Origin: an uncultured Candidatus Saccharibacteria bacterium | GTDB lineage: Bacteria; Patescibacteriota; Minisyncoccia; Phycocordibacterales; UBA918 | Reading direction: 5' to 3' | Assembly: GCA_964608605.1 (NCBI GenBank) | Contig: CAZSOS010000002.1 | Coordinates: 36,601-100,600 of the forward strand | Length of the DNA: 64,000 nt | Shown: piece after piece, positions 7,617 through 43,730 of the stretch | Layout of the letters: each line of letters begins with the position of its first letter | How positions within the stretch are numbered: the stretch's first letter is position 1 | The notes under the pieces: generated by a model | What the model was told of the DNA's origin: nothing | The model's database searches: none | What the model saw: the letters and a program-made list of their open reading frames with translations, nothing else | Position numbers and translations under genes: made by a program

Positions 7617-7924
7617 TTATCTGTTTGAAAACTGAATCCGCATCACCAAATAAAACTTTCAGATTTGGATACAGTTGTGCTGGTTGGAGGAATTTTTACG
7701 CAGGAGACGTATATAGACATACGGCGACCAAGTAAAAATTCCGAAACCAGTGCAAATGTGCCAAATCTGGGAGTTTGTATCTTCTTTTGTCCCATCCTTT
7801 AGTTAATCTAGGTCTCTCCCTAGAGTCTCGATACCAGTTAAGGTTTGAGTATCATGACCATTGTGTACTCGATCGAGATACACAATATCGACGTAACCAA
7901 TGATCCGAAGATCACCGATGTCCA

Positions 7925-9385
<1,461 letters not shown>

Positions 9386-19278: not shown

Positions 19279-19461
19279 ATATTTATTTACAGTATCCCTA
19301 AAGTATAGCAAAACCGGGAAAGAGAAAAGACCGGCGCGCACGCGCGCCGGTCTTTTCTCTACTTATTTATCTTTTCATTATAGCACATTTTATATAAAAA
19401 TACAAGTGTCGGTCAAACAGCCTGCCAGGGTTATCATTGAACGATGATTAACTATCGAGTC

Positions 19462-19482
19462 TATACTAGTCAGACTAGTATA
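19462..19482. repeat. REP-like 21-bp palindrome TATACTAGTCAGACTAGTATA (copy 1)
   Basis: Perfect palindrome of the same consensus as the copies flanking the RAYT gene at 32.1-33.1 kb. Confidence 0.8.
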
Positions 19483-19653
19483 AAGAAGGTTTTATATCTG
19501 ATCACCAAGTCAAATTGGGGTGAGAAGCTCCGGGGGAGCTTCGCAAGACTCATTGAGATATTTTTGGAGTGCGGAGCTTGCGAACAAAAATATCCAATGA
19601 GTGGACAGCTTCTGTAAGAAGGGGCGCAGCTCCGCATCAATTACTCTCCTGTT

Positions 19654-20820
19654 ATGTTTCTTATAAACTCTATGGATAAACCTTCGATAAAGCATAAAAA
19701 AGTACTTTACTTAATTACGAAGAGTAATTGGGGCGGGGCTCAAAGATACGTCTATGACTTAGCGACCGGACTGCCTAAAGACGAGTTTGAGGCCGTGGTG
19801 GCGCTTGGAGGCGACGGGCCTTTGGCAACCAAACTACAAGAGGCCGGGATCCGCGTCATCTTCATCCCTTCCCTACAGCGCGATATCTCGCTGGCTAAAG
19901 AAGCCCGCTCGTTCTTCGAGCTCTGGCGCATCATCCGCGCCGAAAAGCCGGAGGTGCTACATATCAACAGTTCTAAAGCTGGGGCTTTGGGGACTTTGAT
20001 CGGCCGTCTGGCTCGCGTGCCTCAGATCGTCTTCACGGCCCACGGCTGGGCCTTTAACGAAGACCGTCCAAAGTTACAGAAGCTTATACTAAAGAAGATC
20101 CACTGGATGACCGTGTTACTCTCGCACACCACCATCGCCGTCTCACGCGAAGTGAAGCGGCAGATGAATTGGCCGTTCGCGGAGCGCAAGATGGAAGTGA
20201 TTCATAATGGCCGGGCGATAGATCATCTAAAGAGCCGCGAAGCGGCTCGGACGGAGTTAATCACTCATGAGCCTGGATTGCGCCCATACCAAAACGACTT
20301 CTGGTCCCTGACCATCGCCGAGCTGCATCCAGTAAAGCGCCATCAAGCTACTATCGGCGTCATTAAAAAAATAGTTGACGAAGGTGAGGTGATCCGTCAC
20401 CTAATTATCGGCGGCGGCGAGGAGGAACAAAAACTAAGATCTTTAGTATCTAAACTCGATCTGGAAGATAATGTCTTTCTACTTGGGGCCATACCCGAAG
20501 CCGCGGACTTTCTAGCCGCAGCTGACACCTTTATTCTGCCGTCTCTCTCTGAAGCGATGCCGTACGCCATCATCGAAGCCCTGATCGCCGAAGTACCGAC
20601 CATCGCCACCGCTGTCGGCGGCATTCCCGAAGTGATCGAGAACGGTATCAGCGGCCTCCTCGCTCCCCCACTTGATGACGAGGCTTTGCATGCCGCCCTG
20701 AAACGATTAATGAATGATATCGATCTGCGCGCTCGCCTCCAGGCCGGAGCCCGCGAGCGCCAAAGAGATTTCACCCCGGAAAAGATGCTAGAGAAAACCC
20801 TTGATCTCTATCGCGCCTGA
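19654..20820 (+). CDS. glycosyltransferase family 4
   Basis: LITKSNWGGAQRYVYDL and the C-terminal EAMPYAIIEALIAEVPTIATAVGGIPEVI (GT4 E-x7-E region). The start could instead be 19672. Confidence 0.75.
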   Translation: MFLINSMDKPSIKHKKVLYLITKSNWGGAQRYVYDLATGLPKDEFEAVVALGGDGPLATKLQEAGIRVIFIPSLQRDISLAKEARSFFELWRIIRAEKPEVLHINSSKAGALGTLIGRLARVPQIVFTAHGWAFNEDRPKLQKLILKKIHWMTVLLSHTTIAVSREVKRQMNWPFAERKMEVIHNGRAIDHLKSREAARTELITHEPGLRPYQNDFWSLTIAELHPVKRHQATIGVIKKIVDEGEVIRHLIIGGGEEEQKLRSLVSKLDLEDNVFLLGAIPEAADFLAAADTFILPSLSEAMPYAIIEALIAEVPTIATAVGGIPEVIENGISGLLAPPLDDEALHAALKRLMNDIDLRARLQAGARERQRDFTPEKMLEKTLDLYRA

Positions 20821-24504: not shown

Positions 24505-24580
24505 TGGCTGGGGCGGAAGGAGTCGAACCAACACCTGAGGGATAGTACCCTCCGTTCTAACCGTTAAACTAAGCCCCAGC
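24505..24580 (-). tRNA. tRNA-like gene with a non-canonical anticodon loop (apparently 6 nt) and U-U pairs in the T-stem; possible pseudo-tRNA
   Basis: Hand fold gives a good acceptor stem, a D-arm and the T-loop TTCGACT, but the anticodon stem GAGGG/CCCTC encloses only 6 nt (TACTAT). The isotype cannot be assigned by hand. Confidence 0.35.
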
Positions 24581-24602: not shown

Positions 24603-24680
24603 TGGTCGGAGCAACGGGATTTGAACCCGTGACCCCTGGCTACCCGAGCCTAGTGCGCTACCAGGCTGCGCTACACTCCG
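24603..24680 (-). tRNA. tRNA-Pro-like (D-arm identical to tRNA-Pro, loop CTCGGGT reading CGG), anticodon stem irregular
   Basis: Acceptor CGGAGTG/TGCTCCG plus A and CCA, D-arm GCGC-AGCCTGGTA-GCGC, T-arm ACGGG-TTCAAAT-CCCGT. The anticodon region CTAGG-CTCGGGT-AGCCA does not pair canonically. Confidence 0.5.
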
Positions 24681-24996
24681 ACCTAGAGTAGGTGATATTT
24701 TTATCTTCCTACTCAAAACCAGTTCCCCGCTGGTTTATTGTTCGCAGTCTAATTAAGACCGCTTCAGAATATCCAAGCTTGTCCCGTACCAAGACGAATG
24801 TCTTTGGTACGGGATATTTCGCACATCTTCTTACCAGGTTCACACTTCACCCAAAATCGTACAGCGATATCCAGCATTCCTTGCAGGAAATACGTCCGAT
24901 TAGTACTTCTCGGCTCAACGTATTACTACGCTTACACCTAAAGCCTATCAACCTAATCATCTCTTAGGGGACTTCATGATACCTAATCTCAGAGTT

Positions 24997-25029
<33 letters not shown>

Positions 25030-25171
25030 ATTCCCGACATAGCTACTGGGCAGTGCCGCTGGCGCGACAGCCCACAGACCAGAGGTCAGTTCATCCCGGT
25101 CCTCTCGTACTAGGGACAAATCTCTTCAAGTATCGACGCCTGCAGTAGATAGGAGACCAACCTGTCTCACG

Positions 25172-25530
25172 CAATAGTAGCTGATTAGCTTTTAGCACTT
25201 AGCTATTAGCCATTCAACGCCATCATTACTGACGGGATCGGACTGTAACTTAGCCGGTTCTCGGCTTCCGATATTCAGTCTCTACAAGTGCACGAGTAAA
25301 CTTTTTTGCCAGTTTTACTCTGCTTCTCTCGGTATTGCCCGCAACATTACTTGTTAGGGTTTTACCGATTTTAATCGGATCATATCACTGATATTCCTAT
25401 CAGTGACCGCCGTGTAGGTTGGTTCTTTTCTTTGTTCATAAACGAAAAGTAAAAACAATTCTTCGAAGGGGTTTAGACTGCTGAATTTCCCTTAGCCAAG
25501 AGCTAAGTGCTAATAACTAAGAGCTATTCA
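25172..25530 (-). mobile_element. 359-nt ORF-less insertion in 23S between GGGTTTAGACCGT and CGTGAGACAGG (E. coli ~2593, the I-CreI/I-CeuI homing site); group I intron candidate with TTAGC-repeat inverted ends
   Basis: Exon sequence is continuous across the insertion. The insertion ends are TTAGC-rich inverted repeats at 25178-25210 and 25497-25527. Confidence 0.55.
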
Positions 25531-26187
25531 ACGGTCTAAACCCAGCTCGCGTATCTTTTTAATTGGCGAACAGCCAAACCCTTGGGACCTGCTCCAGCCC
25601 CAGGATAAGATGAGCCGACATCGAGGTGCCGAACCGTGCCGTCGCTTTGGACGCTTGGGCACGACTAGCCTGTTATCCCCAGGGTAACTTTTATCGGGTA
25701 ATCTCCGGCGGCATCTAACGCCAACCATCGGTTCACTATGCTCCGCTTTCGCGTCTGTTCGGCATCTACGCCTTACAGTCAAGCCAACTTTTGCCATTGC
25801 ACTATCGGCACGGTTTCCATTCGCGCCTAGTTGACCTTGAGACCCCTCCGTTACATTTTGGGAGGGTAGCGCCCCACTAAAACTGCCTGCCACTCACTGT
25901 CCCCGCCGCGTTTGACGCGACGGGTTAGAAACTGCCCAATTTAAGATAGGTATTTCACTGACGACTCCACGGTACCCGAAAGCCCGCTTCAAAGTCTCCC
26001 TACTATGCTACGCATAAATCAAACAGCCCCAATAAGAAGCTACAGTAAAGCTCCTGGGGTCTCTTCGTCTAACTGCAGGTAGGCTGCATCTTCACAGCCA
26101 TTGTATTTTCACCGAGCAGGTCCTTGAGACAGTTTCCCAGTCGTTACGCCATTCGTGCACGTCGGAACTTACCCGACAAGGAATTGC

Positions 26188-26420
26188 GCTCTATAATTCC
26201 TTCTTTAATGTAGATACCCGCGTATCTACGTACACAATAGGACTCTATCTTCACCCTCTTATATACTAGTCAGACTAGTATAAAGGTGGGGTGTGCAACA
26301 TTTGGTCTCTTGTTGGTTGCAATTGGAAATACTAATGATTACTCACTAGTAAGGTAACTATGGCTCGGGCTGTTTAACTCTACAATCGTTCTAATCCGTA
26401 GAGCACACTTCCGAAGAAAC
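26188..26420 (-). mobile_element. ~233-nt ORF-less insertion in 23S between GGTAGAGCGC and (G)CAATTCCTTGTCGGG (E. coli ~1917 intron site); carries an internal REP-like palindrome
   Basis: Flanking exon sequence aligns to AACTATAACGGTCCTAAGGTAGCG|AAATTCCTTGTCGGG. Palindrome TATACTAGTCAGACTAGTATA lies at 26262-26282. A 7-nt direct repeat AGAGCGC sits at the junctions. Confidence 0.5.
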
Positions 26421-26647
26421 GCGCTCTACCTTAGAACGATTATAGTTATCGCTGACATTGACGGGGGCTTACACAGTCCAGCACCCAGCACCACTCTCAC
26501 AAACTTTGTTTGTGAAGATGGTGCTGGGCACCGCCCGTGCTTAACCTTCCCGCATTGGTCAGGCGTCACCCTCTATACATGGACTTACGTCTTCGCAGAG
26601 AGCTGTGTTTTTGTTAAACAGTCGCCAGGAAATCTTTCGCTGCGGCC

Positions 26648-26836
26648 GAGCGCATCACGCTACGCGCGATGACTAAATTCAAAATTGAAAAGTCAAAATG
26701 CAAAATTACAATGCAAAGTTCAAAATTTCGCTACGAACTCTATGAGTACGTGACGTAATTTTTACTTTTTATTTGTACTTTTGATTTTTGAGATTTTCCT
26801 TTTCAATTTAGCATCACATGCAATGTGATGCGCTCG
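26648..26836 (-). repeat. AT-rich IVS-like expansion in the 23S helix-63 region (copy A of a duplicated AT-rich element)
   Basis: Inserted between the complementary arms GAGCGCATCAC and GTGATGCGCTC. Contains a 47-nt segment (26689-26735) identical to 27405-27451. Confidence 0.6.
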
Positions 26837-27374
26837 GCAGGCCTTATCCCGAAGTTACGGCCGCTTTTTTGCCGAGTTCCTTAAGGACCCCTCACTCGTT
26901 CGCCTTGGTCTTCTCGACCCTACCACCTGTGTCGGTTTGCGGTACGGAACCACTATGCTTAACCCAAACGAAGTTTTTCTCGGAAGCGTGCTCCTTACAT
27001 TTCCTTGGCCGTAGCCGCAGATTCAGACTCTACTCGGATGATATCGCGCGGATTTGCCTACGCGACGTCCTCATAGCTCCAGCACCAATCCAATAAGATG
27101 CTGTAAGTACAACGCTCCGTCCCTCCATAGGAACATAGCAGTGTGCAGGAATATTAACCTGCTCTCCATCGCCTCCGGCGTTCGCCATCGGCTTAGGACC
27201 GACTAACCCTTCGCTGATCACCATCGCGAAGGAAACCTCGGTATTTCGGCGGACGGGGTTCTCACCCGTCTTGCGGTTACTTGTGCCGGCATTCTCACTT
27301 CGCATCGCTCCAGGTAGGGTCTCCCCCACCATTCATCGCAGATACGAACGCTCTCCTACCACTCAACGCACCTC

Positions 27375-27525
27375 ACAAAAGTTCGTTGCTAAAATAAAAA
27401 TGTAAAAGTCAAAATGCAAAATTACAATGCAAAGTTCAAAATTTCGCTACGTGCTATCCTGCGCGTTGCGTGATTTTGATTTTTGAGATTTCAATTTTCA
27501 ATTTAGCATCTCACCTCTGTGAGAT
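27375..27525 (-). repeat. AT-rich IVS-like expansion in 23S helix 45 (copy B)
   Basis: Inserted in the helix-45 stem CAGCGCATCTCAC/GTGAGGTGCGTTG, the site of the classical enterobacterial and Coxiella IVS. Shares the 47-nt repeat and the GATTTTTGAGATTT motif with copy A. Confidence 0.6.
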
Positions 27526-27615
27526 GCGCTGAATCCGCAGTTTCGGTAATATGCTTGAGCCCCGATCATCTTCGGCGCAAGGACTCTCGACCAGTGAGCT
27601 GTTACGCTTTCTTTA

Positions 27616-27650
<35 letters not shown>

Positions 27651-28210
27651 TAGAGAATCCTCACCTCCTCCAGATGCACTGAGCATATATTTAGGGACCT
27701 TAACTGGCGATCTGGGCTGTTCCCCTTTTGACCAATGGAGCTTCTCCCCCATAGTCTAACTGCCGAGCTATAATCTCTGGTATTCGGAGTTTGATAGGAA
27801 CAACGAGCTTTCGCCCTGTTTGTTCCTTCCAGTGCTCTACCCCCAGAGGGACCACTCGACGCCAACCCAAAAGCTGTTTCGGAGAGAACCAGCTATTACG
27901 GAAATCGATTAGCTTTTCACTCCTTACCACAAGTCATCCGATGGTTTTGTACGGCCAACCGGTTCGGGCCTCCACGAGGTTTTACCCTCGCTTCACCCTG
28001 CTCATGGCAAGCTCTTCCCGCTTCGGGTCGTACCCCAACTCCATATTCGCGCTATTCACGCTCGCTTTCACTGCGCCTCCGCGGGTTTTCCGCTTAGACA
28101 AGGAATTAAGGTACACTCGCCGGCTCATTCTTCAATAGGCACGCCGCAACCCCGAAAGGCCGCGACTCCTTGTAAGTGTATGGTTTCAGATCTATTTCAC
28201 TCCCCTCTCC

Positions 28211-28256
<46 letters not shown>

Positions 28257-28554
28257 TTAAAAGATATTTAGCCTTACCAGTTAGTGCTGGCAGATTCATC
28301 CGAGCTATTCATGTCTCGAACTACTCAGGAACAAGATCAACGGAGTCATATACATTTCAAATACGGGACTATTACCCACTGGGGTCGAGCTTCCCAACTC
28401 GTTCTTCTATATATATGTTTTGTAACTCCGCGCAACTAAATGCGGACCTTGCCCTACAACCCCGTAAATATTGCTATCAACGGTTTGGGCTATTCCCGTT
28501 TCGCTCGCCGCTACTAAGGGAATCGCGAGAACCTTCTTCCTGGTTTCAATGGCC

Positions 28555-28878
28555 CCAGCACCACTTTTTGGTTTCAATGGATTTGAGACGACTCACATCT
28601 TTTCAATAATTCTTGTTTGCCGCGACCATGTTGTTTAAGTCGCTGCTCACGCTTGTCCGCATCGTCTTTAGAACGGTATGCTTCTGCGTATATCAAGATC
28701 CATTTCCCTGATGTTCTGTGCGTAGACTTATTGCGTGAGCTATTATGCTCGCTAAGTCGTCGCCTCAAATCATTGGTTCTTCCAATGTAGATATCTCTAG
28801 TATCACTGTGTTGTATCACATAGACACTGTACATAATCCACATTGTATCAAAACCAAAAAGTGGTGCTGGGTAGTTTT
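28555..28878 (-). mobile_element. IVS-like element in 23S domain I (E. coli ~210) bounded by 21-bp perfect inverted repeats CCCAGCACCACTTTTTGGTTT; encodes a GIY-YIG protein
   Basis: Inverted repeats at 28555-28575 and 28858-28878. The flanking rRNA aligns to GAAAAGAAA...GATTCCC..AGTAGCGGCGAGCGAA. Confidence 0.65.
28574..28843 (-). CDS. GIY-YIG nuclease superfamily protein (89 aa) encoded inside the 23S rRNA gene
   Basis: YSVYVIQHSDTRDIYIGRTNDLRRRLSEHN carries the GIY...YIG motifs with conserved Arg and Glu. Confidence 0.6.
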   Translation of the reverse strand: MWIMYSVYVIQHSDTRDIYIGRTNDLRRRLSEHNSSRNKSTHRTSGKWILIYAEAYRSKDDADKREQRLKQHGRGKQELLKRCESSQIH

Positions 28879-29150
28879 AACCAGAAAGAAAGTTCCGTAT
28901 ATTGCTTTCTTTTCCTCTCGGTACTGAGATGTTTCACTTCCCGAGGTGTGCTCTCGCATAACGCGAGTTTCCGACGTAATCGGAAGGGTTTCCCCATTCG
29001 GAGATCTCCGGATCGAAGGTTGATTGTCACCTCCCCGAAGCTTATCGCAGACATTCTACGTCCTTCATCGCTCTTTTAAGCCAAGGCATCCACCATACAC
29101 CCTTACATTCCTGCAAGGAATGCTGTACACCGCTGTACGATTCTGATCAT

Positions 29151-29172
29151 CTAGTTTTCTGGTTGACTAGTG
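29151..29172. repeat. CTAGTTTTCTGGTTGACTAGT motif (member of a dispersed short motif family)
   Basis: Related copies lie at 35425-35461, 41905-41927 and 42531-42561. Confidence 0.5.
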
Positions 29173-30786: not shown

Positions 30787-30898
30787 ATTTGTGAATTTTT
30801 AATTTCCAATTTTTAATTTTGAATCAATGTTGAATTAACCAATTTTGAAACATTCACTCATTCGAATTTGATTCGAAATTCGTAATTCAAAATTCGAC

Positions 30899-31387
30899 CT
30901 ATGCGGACTTCTTCTCAGCCAGAGCATTCAACGCCACGGCCAATCCCTGGATCGGGCTGTTCAAGACATTGACGAACATGCCGCGAAGCACCTGCAGTGA
31001 CGGGATCGAAGCGATCTCGGTCATCTCCTCGCGGGTCTTGAAGACTCCCTCGAAGACGCCGCCGACGATGGCGATGTTTTCCTTGTACTTCTCGGCGAAG
31101 TCCTTGACGTTCTGTGCCGGAGCGATGGCGTCCTCGGAATACGCGACGGCGATCTCGCCATCGAGTTCGGGCATGGAGCCTTCGAAAGCCTCGCCGAAAG
31201 CGCGCTTCATCAGGGTCTTCTTGGCCACGAAGTAGCCTACTCCTTGTTCGCGCAAAGCCGCGCGCATGGCCACGGTATCATTGGCCGGCACTCCCTTGAA
31301 GGAAACGAAAACGAGGGACTTCGAAGAGTCCTTCACCTCCTCCAGCTTGCGGAGAATGTCCTGCTTCTTTGCTTTTGTAATTGCCAT
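30899..31387 (-). CDS. rplJ: 50S ribosomal protein L10
   Basis: L10 family pattern (KKQDILRKLEE..., VGYFVAKKTLMKRA). Immediately upstream of rplL. Confidence 0.85.
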   Translation of the reverse strand: MAITKAKKQDILRKLEEVKDSSKSLVFVSFKGVPANDTVAMRAALREQGVGYFVAKKTLMKRAFGEAFEGSMPELDGEIAVAYSEDAIAPAQNVKDFAEKYKENIAIVGGVFEGVFKTREEMTEIASIPSLQVLRGMFVNVLNSPIQGLAVALNALAEKKSA

Positions 31388-31788: not shown

Positions 31789-31830
31789 CGGGGTGTAGCA
31801 TAGTGGTAGTGTGCACGCATGCTGGGATAA
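31789..31830 (+). pseudogene. truncated tRNA 5' half (acceptor 5' strand, D-arm and 5' anticodon stem), a tandem partial duplicate of the downstream tRNA-Pro
   Basis: CGGGGTG-TA-GCAT-AGTGGTA-GTGT-G-CACGC-ATG... parallels the 5' half of the tRNA at 31841 but lacks the 3' half. Confidence 0.45.
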
Positions 31831-31840
31831 AAACCAAGGT

Positions 31841-31913
31841 CGGGGTATCGTATAGTGGTAGTATGCACGCATGGGGTGCGTGTAGCGTCGGTTCGATTCC
31901 GGCTACCCCGACC
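31841..31913 (+). tRNA. tRNA-Pro (anticodon GGG)
   Basis: Acceptor CGGGGTA/TACCCCG, D-arm GTAT-AGTGGTA-GTAT, anticodon arm CACGC-ATGGGGT-GCGTG, T-arm GTCGG-TTCGATT-CCGGC. The acceptor stem is extended a further 8 bp by the flanks AAAAACCAAGGT/ACCTTGGTTTTT. Confidence 0.7.
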
Positions 31914-32074
31914 TTGGTTTTTATCGACAGTCCGGGGGACTGTCGATGTGGTCCGGGTTCGTCTGCCTACGGCAGCGGTCCACTTACTGGATATTTTGTT
32001 CCAAGTATTCACAAAATATCTCAATGAGTCTTGCAAAGCGCCACTAGCGCTTCTCACCCGGCTCCCCGACAATT

Positions 32075-32118
32075 TATACCAGTCAGACTAGTATATTTAT
32101 ACTAGTCTGACTGGTATT
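32075..32118. repeat. REP-like palindrome doublet (TATACCAGTCAGACTAGTATA then TATACTAGTCTGACTGGTATA) at the 3' end of the RAYT gene
   Basis: Two adjacent 21-bp palindromes in opposite polarity, a BIME-like arrangement. Confidence 0.8.
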
Positions 32119-32806
32119 ATTCTAAAACCTTCTCTCCTTGCACCCATTTTCCTCCCAAAATCACGTCCTTTGAATAATCTTTAAAAGATTGTGGGGTGAA
32201 GATATTGAATAATAAATTGTTATTATTCAAAATCGGAGATCCTTTCCTGACACCCGAGTAATCGCCCAAACTGGAGAAATTATAATCTTTGGCCCAACTC
32301 CAAGCTTTTTCAAAATCTTCTATAGCCGATCTCAATCCTCCATCCGGGTAAAGTTCGAATGTGTTCTTCACCATGACATAAGCGGCTACGTATCTTAAAT
32401 ACTCATCTTCAACGATCGTTTTAGATCGGAACGCTCCTTGGAACAGACTCCCCCGCTCTTCATATTTTTCATTCGAGTGATTGGTCATACTCTGGCCCAA
32501 CCTTTGCATAAAGAGGCTCACACCACCTTCGGATATCTCCTGAATCAATAAATGAAAGTGGTTAGGCATCAATGTGTACCCTAAAACCTCTACCAGAGGT
32601 TCCCTGTCGGGCCAACTCGACGGACGACTGAATACATGACGATGATCTTCATAAATCCAGTTTTTACTGAAGTGCTTGTCATTCAAAAGAAACAGCATCC
32701 TCAAAAAGCGCCACCGGTCACTTTCGTCACGAACTATGTTAAGTCCTCGTGCGCCTCGTTTGACAATGTGCAAGTATGAACCGACCGAATATGGTTCCAC
32801 CCTCAT
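32117..32806 (-). CDS. REP-associated tyrosine transposase (RAYT) / IS200-like HuH-Y1 transposase
   Basis: The HuH motif in LGYTLMPNHFHLLIQE and a catalytic-Tyr region (EYLRYVAAYVMVKN) fit the Y1 transposase fold. The gene is flanked on both sides by REP-like palindromes. Confidence 0.7.
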   Translation of the reverse strand: MRVEPYSVGSYLHIVKRGARGLNIVRDESDRWRFLRMLFLLNDKHFSKNWIYEDHRHVFSRPSSWPDREPLVEVLGYTLMPNHFHLLIQEISEGGVSLFMQRLGQSMTNHSNEKYEERGSLFQGAFRSKTIVEDEYLRYVAAYVMVKNTFELYPDGGLRSAIEDFEKAWSWAKDYNFSSLGDYSGVRKGSPILNNNNLLFNIFTPQSFKDYSKDVILGGKWVQGEKVLE

Positions 32807-32815
32807 AAACCTACT

Positions 32816-32836
32816 ATATACCAGTCTGACTAGTAT
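32816..32836. repeat. REP-like palindrome TATACCAGTCTGACTAGTATA immediately upstream of the RAYT start
   Basis: Same 21-bp consensus as the other copies. Confidence 0.8.
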
Positions 32837-32974
32837 ATATTTATTGTTTTGTTGATAGCTTTCACCTAGCCTGTGGCGCCGACGATGAGGACGATGAAGA
32901 GGCCGACAGTGATGACGATAAGGAAACTGAAGAGGAATTTGTAGAAAGTTGAGTTGAACATGAGTTTGATTATA

Positions 32975-33003
32975 ACAAACCCCGCGGCCATAGGCCGCGG
33001 GGT
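32975..33003. terminator. hairpin AACCCCGCGGCC-ATA-GGCCGCGGGGTT (terminator of the surface-protein gene)
   Basis: 12-bp GC stem flanked by T-rich sequence. Confidence 0.55.
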
Positions 33004-33011
33004 TTGTTGTT

Positions 33012-33055
33012 TATACCAGTCTGACTAGCATAAATATACTAGTCTGACTGGTATA
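33012..33055. repeat. REP-like palindrome doublet (TATACCAGTCTGACTAGCATA then TATACTAGTCTGACTGGTATA)
   Basis: Second BIME-like doublet, about 200 bp upstream of the RAYT gene. Confidence 0.75.
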
Positions 33056-33151
33056 GAAAAAAGAAAAGGTGGGAAACAAAAAGCCCGCCGCGGTTAGGCG
33101 GGGGCTTTTTGTTGATCTACTCACTCAAGCGAGCGGTAATTCACGCAATGA

Positions 33152-36622: not shown

Positions 36623-36763
36623 AATAGTGTCTCTTTATCTGTCTTATAGGTGTATCGGACAGTGTTAGGGACAGTATACTGATGGGTGGCTAGTTGTCTA
36701 GTTGGCTGGTTGTCTGGTCTCCTGGTTTACTGGTTTCTTGTTGGTCATAGTAATCTAGTAGTG

Positions 36764-41887: not shown

Positions 41888-41956
41888 CTTGTTTGCTAGT
41901 TTACCAGTTTTCTGGTTAACTAGTGGACCAACACACCAGCTAACCAGCCAACTAGT

Positions 41957-42532: not shown

Positions 42533-42562
42533 CTAGTTTTCTGGTTTCCTAGTAGCTAGTTA

Positions 42563-43145: not shown

Positions 43146-43283
43146 CATATATTGGTTATTGGTATCGGCTACTCGCAAATTTTGAATTACTAATTTTGAA
43201 TTTTGATTCAATTTTTAATGTTTAAATTTTGAAACATTAGCTAATTCAACATTGATTCGAAATTTGAAATTCATCATTCGAAA

Positions 43284-43730
43284 TTAGAAGGGTATATCAT
43301 CGGGATTTATTTCTTCTTCAGGGTAGTCAGGTAGCTTAGGCGCGTTCGGAGTGTTGGCGGCATTGGAAGCGGAAACGGTATTGTCTCCGCCACCAGTACC
43401 CCGGCCGCCGTCGGCGCCGAACTGGAAGTTGTCAGCCACGATCTCGGTGCGATAGCGCTTCACGCCATCCTGCTCCCAGGAACGGGTCTGCATGCGGCCC
43501 TCGATGTACACTGGCCGGCCCTTCTTGAGCCACTGCCCCATGACGTCGGCCAATTTGCCGAAAGCCACGACATCGTGGAATTCGGTCTGCTCCTGTTTCT
43601 TGCCGTCCTTATCGGTATAGGTGCGGTTGGTGGCGACAGCGAACGAACAGACCGCTTGGCCGCTCGGAAGCGCTCTCTTCTCGGGATCACGGGTCAGGTT
43701 GCCGTAGATGATGGCCTTGTTGATGTACAT
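43284..43730 (-). CDS. ssb: single-stranded DNA-binding protein
   Basis: OB-fold core, a Gly-rich linker and the acidic C-terminal tip DDIPF. Confidence 0.85.
   Translation of the reverse strand: MYINKAIIYGNLTRDPEKRALPSGQAVCSFAVATNRTYTDKDGKKQEQTEFHDVVAFGKLADVMGQWLKKGRPVYIEGRMQTRSWEQDGVKRYRTEIVADNFQFGADGGRGTGGGDNTVSASNAANTPNAPKLPDYPEEEINPDDIPF

Follow-up and report, generated by a model that had tools for sequence, protein, structure and literature searches.

Small three-hairpin elements of CPR/Patescibacteria, a probable new superfamily of non-autonomous mobile DNA

In a 64,000-nucleotide stretch of contig CAZSOS010000002.1 (hereafter, the window) from an uncultured Candidatus Saccharibacteria bacterium, a short non-coding module with a hairpin occurs in two copies. 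It was found that each copy belongs to a larger element, about 95–105 nucleotides (nt) in length, which consists in 5′ to 3′ order of hairpin A, the motif CNGTNC, hairpin B, the motif CTTGC, hairpin C, and a terminal TCAC. This element family is uncatalogued, and it was found here only in Candidate Phyla Radiation (CPR)/Patescibacteria or in unnamed or metagenome records. Its insertion is clean, with neither terminal inverted repeats nor target duplication, its presence varies between syntenic loci, and its subfamilies share only the junction motifs. I regard it as fairly probable that the module represents type 1 of a new superfamily of small, non-coding, non-autonomous mobile DNA elements.

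The 22-mer AAAATATCTCAATGAGTCTTGC is present exactly twice in the window (19543–19564 on the minus strand and 32013–32034 on the plus strand), while none is expected from 100 shuffles, and a repeat finder gave an inverted match of 47 nt with 87% identity between the two copies. The initial annotation was thus right that the two sites share a conserved non-coding module. The limits that it gave (about 45 nt, at 19484–19560 and 31985–32070) were too narrow and partly misplaced. When the two copies were aligned with 21 homologues, the element grew to about 100 nt, with two more hairpins upstream of the module as first drawn. This upstream extension of the similarity comprises a long hairpin (ACTCATTGGATATTT...AAATATC-T-CAATGAGT) and a short hairpin with a TAC loop. 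Positions 19484–19519, which had been counted into the module, turned out to be a remnant of the 5′ end of the neighboring glycosyltransferase (GT4) gene. A covariance model (R1), run with its filters off, gave exactly two matches in the window. The extents and parts of both copies are shown in Table 1.

The structural alignment was curated by hand, with the loops padded with N to survive MAFFT. It comprised 19 copies and later 42 unique copies; the values below are from the latter, and loci are cited by handles such as L018. Every copy examined folds into the same three hairpins. Hairpin A has a stem of 4–5 bp closed by (Y)TAC(R), with the outer arm placed at the 5′ edge of the element or just beyond it. 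Hairpin B has about 15 bp with a conserved bulge, and its loop accepts inserts and has lengths of 5–24 nt that do not differ by multiples of three. Hairpin C has a variable stem of 7–9 bp and is flanked at the right end by only TG/CA (2 bp). Standard pairs fill 96.1% of the cells, against 81.7% in shuffles and 36–49% when the partners are slid. As had been argued, the structure is real and not a chance similarity. The internal hairpin of the noted module was read and folded in both window copies, and it does differ between them yet stays paired. Thirteen pairs in total have changed on both sides. In hairpin A, five of five pairs have done so, with 97% of the cells paired and an invariant TAC loop, and in hairpin C seven of nine. 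Hairpin B also has compensatory variants, namely ACTTATTG/CAATAAGT in L050 and L068 and ACCTTTTG/CAAAAGGT in L076 and L016. Between sister subfamilies, its outer and inner stems covary (ACCTTTTG/CAAAAGGT, AGGTTGTC/GCAACCT, and GGATAAAAT/ATTTTATC). Among the unpaired positions, the TAC loop, CTGTCC (CNGTNC elsewhere), the bulged base in hairpin B, CTTGC, and the terminal TCAC are invariant; the sister subfamilies have only TTACA, CNGTNC, CTTGC, and TCAC in common.

Copies of the sister subfamilies were located at L019 577–672, L066 7230–7328, L069 889–1067, L045 1689–1848, L064 824–924, L076 7020–7137, and L016 6103–6195. Some of their B hairpins are at least 130 nt long, and they often share their loci with type 1, in nested or tandem arrangement. 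Three further candidate features were dropped. A pseudoknot between GCAAG in the B-loop and CTTGC holds in only about half of the copies. A closing helix P1 around the whole element (L018, L019, L012, and copy 2 of the window) proved to be a host hairpin or tRNA T-arm region at the insertion site. A link between the guide (the inner arm of hairpin A, discussed below) and the lower stem of hairpin C gave matches at chance level only, judged by eye.

Do the hairpins form in RNA or in DNA? In structured RNAs, G·U usually outnumbers A·C clearly on the transcribed strand. Hairpin A has 164 Watson-Crick pairs, one G·T, and two A·C, while hairpin C has 279, one, and nine, respectively. Folding as single-stranded DNA (ssDNA) is equally good for both strands of the element. 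The lack of a G·U excess and the equal folding of both strands are taken as evidence for hairpins at the DNA level. Palindrome correction by intrastrand template switching is a mutational process known in other systems, and part of the 'covariation' could come from it. The initial annotation had dismissed two open reading frames (ORFs) of 60–80 codons as translations of the noncoding module. That view held up, and the small ORFs are artefacts rather than coding sequences, because the length of the hairpin B loop varies by steps other than multiples of three.

An exact 21-mer scan of one genome per species gave 21 loci. The named records are all metagenome-assembled genomes (MAGs) of CPR/Patescibacteria (Saccharibacteria, Paceibacteria, Nomura-, Zambryskii-, and Taylorbacteria, and Minisyncoccia), and three records are labeled merely 'bacterium'. 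Several MAGs have two to three copies each. A metagenome scan with a degenerate 5′ half-site yielded 59 further stretches, most of them with the full element; L022, L032, L036, and L052 seem to fit the degenerate pattern by chance. In 413 kb of retrieved loci, the covariance model found 92 matches. Thus, the two window copies are not the only ones, and the element is conserved elsewhere, with an essentially invariant core of 30 nt across several CPR classes. The window itself is CPR-like in its unlinked 16S gene, its enlarged 23S gene, and its proteins, whose closest named relatives are in Kaiser-, Nomura-, and Paceibacteria. There were no matches in a viral-contig scan with a 19-mer or in BLAST searches of phage and plasmid collections. 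Rfam, at gathering thresholds and with E up to 10, gave no family overlapping hairpins A or B (riboswitches, ribozymes, small RNAs, IS605-orfB, and HEARO included), and its two weak, chance-level matches clip only hairpin C of copy 2. No earlier description of the element was found in the literature searched.

Several copies are nested in one another. A type-3 element lies inside the hairpin C loop of a type-1 element in L051, L067, and L075. A type-1 element lies inside the B-loop of a type-2 element in L027, splits the 5′ linker of a type-3 element in L033, and occupies the B-loop of a further hairpin element in L057 and L080. When the segment YTAC...TCAC is deleted from these nested cases, the usual sequence of the host is given back to within one base, and the nested inserts are always oriented like the host element. 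A further repeated hairpin module (...TCAC-AGTCACTAAGTATATTTG-TTCG...-CAAATCTACTAAGTG-CTYGC...) was noted upstream of type-1 copies in L051, L027, L075, L057, and L080; its loop hosts type-1 insertions, and hairpin A of the next element is at the same time the last hairpin of this module.

The presence of the element was also compared between syntenic loci. The order epimerase/sugar-transferase, GT4, FtsW, VWA is kept in L082–L084, and L081 has the GT4-FtsW-VWA part only. The spacer upstream of GT4 is 95–116 nt in L081, L083, and L084, without the element or a repetitive extragenic palindrome (REP), and 312 nt in the window. The spacer between the 5S rRNA gene and VWA is empty in the window (58 nt) and has one or two elements in L029, L042, L048, L061, L064, and L071. 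L074 has the same flanks, but no 5S was detected on its short contig. Comparison with L081 at the DNA level revealed that the exact breakpoint against the ancestral GT4 sequence falls between the A and the last C of the terminal TCAC. The 3′ end of the element is also the exact breakpoint in the tRNA-Cys-like gene of L018, another tRNA gene (L026), a 5S-like fragment, and tRNA-Pro. In nested and gene cases alike, the insertions are clean to within 0–2 nt, and neither terminal inverted repeats nor a target-site duplication was found. The targets include gene ends and hairpin loops, the latter in sister elements and in at least one terminator. Tandem arrays of element, spacer, and element occur in L054, L064, L071, and L074.

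Many gene-associated copies have a common layout which, in the orientation of the element, consists of an intact gene, a segment X of 49–74 nt, the element, and a duplicate of the gene segment next to the breakpoint. The duplicate is a perfect 52 nt of an antisense tRNA, read as tRNA-Cys, in L018, 31 nt of another antisense tRNA in L026 and L020, and GCCAACATTAAGT... in the 5S set. For copy 2 of the window, the 3′ end of tRNA-Pro, CCGGCT(A)CCCCGAC, is found at both 31899–31912 and 32058–32070. For copy 1, the N-terminus of GT4 (KKVLYLITKSNWG) is re-encoded with different AT-rich codons at 19696–19733. In its final 12–35 nt, X resembles the part of the gene directly 5′ of the breakpoint; thus, the element sits cleanly in a truncated pseudo-copy beside the intact copy. 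The intact copy is on the 5′ side of the element in five of five independent cases, and the duplicated host unit is about 60–115 nt. Such a layout would be the product expected if a small circle, composed of the element and about 100 nt of its 3′ flank, integrated by homologous recombination. An alternative origin is a tandem duplication followed by loss.

In the window, the 5′ end of the GT4 gene is present twice, as an ancestral fragment (19444–19520) with an in-frame 24-nt REP insertion and as a new AT-rich start from 19654. Between the element and the new ATG are 31 nt that seem to be left over from the codons that came next (GAQ...). Judging from these sequences, the doubled 5′ end looks like a replacement or repair of the gene end after insertion. 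As for the tRNA locus, the window has two tRNA-Pro(GGG) genes (24603–24680 and 31841–31913), and the 5′ half of the tRNA is partly repeated at about 31800–31828. A 22-nt perfect inverted repeat (31826–31847/31904–31925) extends the acceptor stem. The 5′ flank of copy 2 (about 31949–31961, GGTCCGGGTTCGT) resembles the T-arm region of a tRNA. ARAGORN called the tRNA at 24505–24578 Ser, with the unusual anticodon ACT.

Hairpin A is found at the left boundary. TTAC or CTAC is always found at this boundary, inside the insert in four of the five nested cases, while the 5′ flanks vary (CTTC, TTCC, CTCC, CCGC, and others). The helix that the flank and the inner arm form is separated from hairpin B by 6 nt. 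In nested cases, the normal sequence of the host already has the outer arm, as if the target were chosen through pairing with the inner 'guide' arm. In gene cases, the 3–5 nt beside YTAC differ from the intact gene copy and complement the guide instead (GAAC to TTCC in L018 and AAAC to CTTC in L026). In L064, tandem type-2 and type-1 elements share hairpin A beside the same duplicated flank, and orthologous loci of the Saccharibacteria set have compensated differences (CTCC/GGAG versus TTCC/GGAA). Thus, hairpin A is a property of the junction, and it may be selected, templated, or corrected there. An unrelated insert of about 75 nt (TTGAAC...GTTCAA...CTTGCATAC) interrupts the hairpin-A loop exactly at its TAC in L051 (about 7684–7757) and L067 (about 258–331), and the otherwise identical L075 (about 1985–1997) is without it; the junctions have a 3-nt TAC ambiguity. 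This insert marks the hairpin-A loop again as a recombination point.

From these observations, a mechanism can be proposed. The hairpins would act at the DNA level, probably in ssDNA. A trans-acting enzyme may recognize hairpin B together with the junction motifs and may cut at the hairpin-A loop and after TCAC. The inner arm of hairpin A would act like a guide complementary to the adjoining DNA. Such a cleavage logic would resemble that of IS200/IS605, in which the sites are read by pairing with a guide beside the hairpin near each end. A bolder version, which I hold to be rather unlikely, is that CPR-wide elements of about 100 nt choose or mark their sites by guide pairing over 4–5 nt, are moved in trans by an unrecognized enzyme (HUH-like or other), and may travel as circles of about 200 nt carrying a homology arm from a conserved host gene. 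If true, the elements would constitute a minimal insertion system that is reprogrammable by nature, and also a path for spread between naturally competent ultra-small bacteria.

The initial annotation had suggested an extended end of an IS200/IS605 element. In IS608, the cleavage sites TTAC (outside the left end) and TCAA (inside the right end) are read by 4-nt guides located 5′ of subterminal hairpins, a changed left guide retargets insertion, and one and the same TnpA binds the imperfect subterminal palindromes of both ends (PMC3201880). IS200/IS605 elements integrate into the lagging-strand template (PMC5027513; PMC6006769). Like these elements and their non-autonomous derivatives (palindrome-associated transposable elements, PATEs), the present element has no terminal inverted repeats, makes no target duplication, and has subterminal hairpins and a bulged base in the main hairpin. 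Its short putative guide by a hairpin appears to pair with left-junction DNA, its TTAC and TCAC resemble the TTAC and TCAA of IS608 (PMC3201880), and its insertions have a fixed orientation and are apparently made into single-stranded loops. In contrast to IS200/IS605, its TTAC is part of the loop of a covarying hairpin and apparently of the insert, there seems to be no fixed target tetranucleotide, and CTGTCC intervenes between its guide and hairpin B. The loci searched (about 470 kb) gave no cognate tnpA or tnpB with the ends of the element. The earlier suggestion is partly supported by the mobile-DNA behavior, the subterminal hairpins, and the TTAC/TCAC signals, but the sequence is a complete small element rather than the extended end of a larger transposon. 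It resembles IS200/IS605 in the way it seems to work and is not filed as a member, because several defining features of that family are lacking.

Other small mobile sequences were also compared. Like miniature inverted-repeat transposable elements (MITEs) such as Correia, RUP, BOX, and ERIC, the element is a small non-coding sequence present in many intergenic copies, some of which are nested or co-transcribed with their neighbors. Unlike MITEs, whose hallmarks are terminal inverted repeats and short target duplications produced by DDE transposases, it has neither, and its ends are (arm)YTAC... and ...TCAC. Integron attC sites are recognized by the R''/R' core sites RYYYAAC ... GTTRRRY bracketing a hairpin; these motifs are absent from the invariant columns of the 42-copy alignment.

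Several observations weigh against a mobile element. ORF clustering over the loci revealed no recurrent transposase, integrase, or reverse transcriptase near the copies; the recurring clusters reflect only housekeeping synteny (ftsA/ftsZ, VWA/FtsW, surface proteins, and a sigma factor). No long, ORF-carrying (autonomous) version was found in about 470 kb. Y1 transposase genes resembling those of REP-associated tyrosine transposases (RAYTs) in the window, L066, and L080 have three different flanking palindromes, none of which is the element. Unlike the two palindromes of IS608, hairpins B (invariant, about 15 bp) and C (variable, 7–9 bp) differ in sequence and form. Unlike IS200/IS605, the element has no strand bias when gene direction is used as a proxy, since the nearest ORFs are on the same strand in 45 cases and on the opposite strand in 51 (27 versus 19 for loci), and the two window copies are oppositely oriented despite a monotonic GC skew. 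A recent burst has left no sign, since divergence among copies within one genome is as large as that between copies of different classes. Even in elements with different hairpins A and C, hairpin B stays invariant, and purifying selection for a host function would also explain this. The evidence on the origin of the outer arm of hairpin A is contradictory, pointing to the target in nested cases and to a rewritten arm in gene cases.

The other explanations differ in what they make of these data. If the element were a stand-alone structured small RNA or a new self-cleaving ribozyme, the junction nucleotides would be a catalytic or protein-binding core and the helices a scaffold. The clustering of conserved nucleotides at the helix junctions, the covarying helices, and the invariance of hairpin B across CPR classes suit this idea, and the lack of an Rfam match would simply make the family new. 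In addition, the pairing of a flank with an internal guide in hairpin A is similar to that in the P1 helix of group I introns. I nevertheless give this explanation a low probability, since G·U pairs are almost absent, with A·C at least as common as G·T, and both strands fold equally. Moreover, copies lie inside other copies and in pseudo-gene fragments, and there is neither an orientation preference relative to the neighboring genes nor a promoter or terminator signal. Indeed, no σ70-like promoter was seen upstream and no intrinsic terminator downstream of either window copy. The small-RNA function that the initial annotation had offered as an option gained no positive support from consensus promoters or terminators, orientation bias, G·U enrichment, or Rfam, and is disfavored. 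A role of the element itself as a promoter or terminator was rejected, as there is no consensus and the variable loop length breaks any −35/−10 spacing.

An intron-like or SINE-like retroelement would be transcribed, find its target through the hairpin-A guide by a pairing akin to reverse splicing, and be copied back into DNA. Such a path would account for the pairing of only the 5′ flank with a guide near the 5′ end and for insertions in single-stranded loops oriented like the host element; loops that tolerate cargo are typical of ribozyme introns. A likeness to group I introns is seen in the 5′ flank, which pairs with a guide a few bases inside to give a small boundary hairpin, and in the peripheral loops that accept inserts. 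In contrast to them, however, the element lacks a catalytic core as well as a U·G at the junction. Even the smallest of these introns have at least roughly twice its size, and about 100 nt is far below any known self-splicing intron. With strictly Watson-Crick stems, no group I or II match in Rfam, and no associated reverse transcriptase, the retroelement seems very unlikely to me, and all of the RNA-based explanations together remain improbable. Next to no credence can be given to a cis-regulatory leader or riboswitch, or to a small-protein coding sequence. Copy 1 is placed 31 nt upstream of the GT4 start codon, in antisense orientation, and small ORFs overlap both copies. However, the flanking genes of the family are unrelated housekeeping genes in all orientations (def/fmt, ftsA/ftsZ, parB, relA, tyrS, HU, KhpA, tRNAs, and 5S rRNA), so that no constant position or orientation upstream of a coherent gene set exists, and this context analysis effectively refutes the idea. 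Besides the steps in loop length, the variation is compensatory and not synonymous.

The neighboring REPs raise another explanation. The REP palindrome TATACYAGTCWGACTRGYATA is present at 19462, 26262–26282 (inside the 23S insertion), 32075/32098, 32817, and 33012/33035, and the ORF at 32117–32806 on the minus strand encodes a Y1_Tnp protein bracketed by REP singlets and doublets (region 32075–33058). The module might thus be a part of a composite unit, like a bacterial interspersed mosaic element (BIME), handled by this RAYT-like transposase. A REP lies 11–30 nt past the 3′ end of both window copies, the Y1_Tnp gene lies 59 nt past copy 2, and Y1 homologues are also present in the element-bearing L066 and L080. 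The attachment to REPs claimed in the initial annotation is nevertheless not supported, as no window-like REP was seen beside the element in the other genomes read. In L066 and L080, the Y1 genes are 4.6–5 kb away from the element, and the long palindromes on their two sides are different ones. REPs vary from genome to genome, in contrast to the element with its near-identity across classes. The element does share some traits with REP/REPIN-RAYT systems, being a short, extragenic, intergenic hairpin repeat that is presumably acted on in trans (PMC3337134, PMC8266576). Unlike REPs, which are single palindromes of 20–40 nt confined to one genome and clustered around a RAYT, it has three hairpins in about 100 nt, is near-identical across CPR classes, and does not flank a RAYT. 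I give the composite unit only a slight chance. Because the Y1 homologues have palindromes of their own and lie at a distance from the element, REP and RAYT form a system separate from it, and the simplest reading of the proximity in the window (n = 2) is a shared preference for permissive sites.

Table 1. Coordinates of the two element copies, their parts, and the associated gene fragments in the window
Feature	Position	Strand	Remarks
Element copy 1, complete, 103 nt	19520–19622	−	R1 102.9 bits, E 2.9e-20, model positions 1–108; ssDNA fold z = −7.9
Copy 1, hairpin A	19609–19622	−	5′ arm CCTTC 19618–19622; loop TTACA 19613–19617; 3′ arm ('guide') GAAG 19609–19612
Copy 1, junction motif CTGTCC	19603–19608	−	Nearly invariant among type-1 copies; CNGTNC in sister subfamilies
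Copy 1, hairpin B	19548–19602	−	ACTCATTGGATATTTTTG/loop/CAAAAATATC-T-CAATGAGT, bulged T; near-invariant in 42 copies
Copy 1, junction motif CTTGC	19543–19547	−	Invariant in the alignments of 19 and 42 copies; common to all subfamilies
Copy 1, hairpin C and 3′ terminus	19520–19542	−	GAAGCTCC-CCC-GGAGCTTC 19524–19542; TCAC 19520–19523
Remnant of the original GT4 gene 5′ end (ATG...KKVLYLITKSNWG)	19444–19520	+	DNA similarity to orthologue L081; interrupted by REP 19462–19482; broken at the 3′ end of copy 1
Element copy 2, complete, 95 nt	31963–32057	+	R1 81.8 bits, E 1e-15; ssDNA fold z = −4.9
Copy 2, hairpin A (CTGCC-TAC-GGCAG)	31963–31975	+	
Copy 2, junction motif CGGTCC	31976–31981	+	
Copy 2, hairpin B	31982–32029	+	
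Copy 2, junction motif CTTGC	32030–32034	+	
Copy 2, hairpin C	32035–32053	+	Terminus TCAC 32054–32057
Displaced duplicate CCGGCTCCCCGAC of the tRNA-Pro 3′ end	32058–32070	+	Abuts TCAC of copy 2; matches CCGGCTACCCCGAC 31899–31912 in tRNA-Pro 31841–31913

Other repeats and rRNA features were also noted in the window. The 23S rRNA gene (24879–29116, minus strand) is 4238 nt for a model of 2925 nt, that is, about 1.3 kb extra. The extra sequence has direct repeats (26673–26735/27389–27451 and 26779–26818/27474–27513) and no ORF recognizable by Pfam. The 16S gene (7925–9384, minus strand) is unlinked, about 15 kb from the 23S gene. An AT-rich repeat of about 110 nt with AATTTTGAATTAC...-like units is present at 30794–30905 and 43174–43285 (79% as a direct and 71% as an inverted repeat), and short units related to it are at 26675–26699. 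A short motif, CTAGTTTTCTGGTTGACTAGT, and its variants are clustered at 29151–29171, 36690–36735, 41888–41955, and 42533–42553, and the motif also forms a 38-nt inverted pair (36698–36735/41918–41955).

CPR/Patescibacteria are a large share of bacterial diversity, and little is known of their mobile and non-coding DNA. The element recurs in rRNA and tRNA neighborhoods and at duplicated or repaired gene ends, and it is thus the mark of a process by which these tiny genomes are reshaped. Mis-annotated small ORFs and assembly breaks in metagenome-assembled CPR genomes are also likely to stem from it, and even as selfish DNA it is a useful lineage marker. If the boundary hairpin reflects guide-directed targeting, the element would point to an undiscovered enzyme with programmable site choice.

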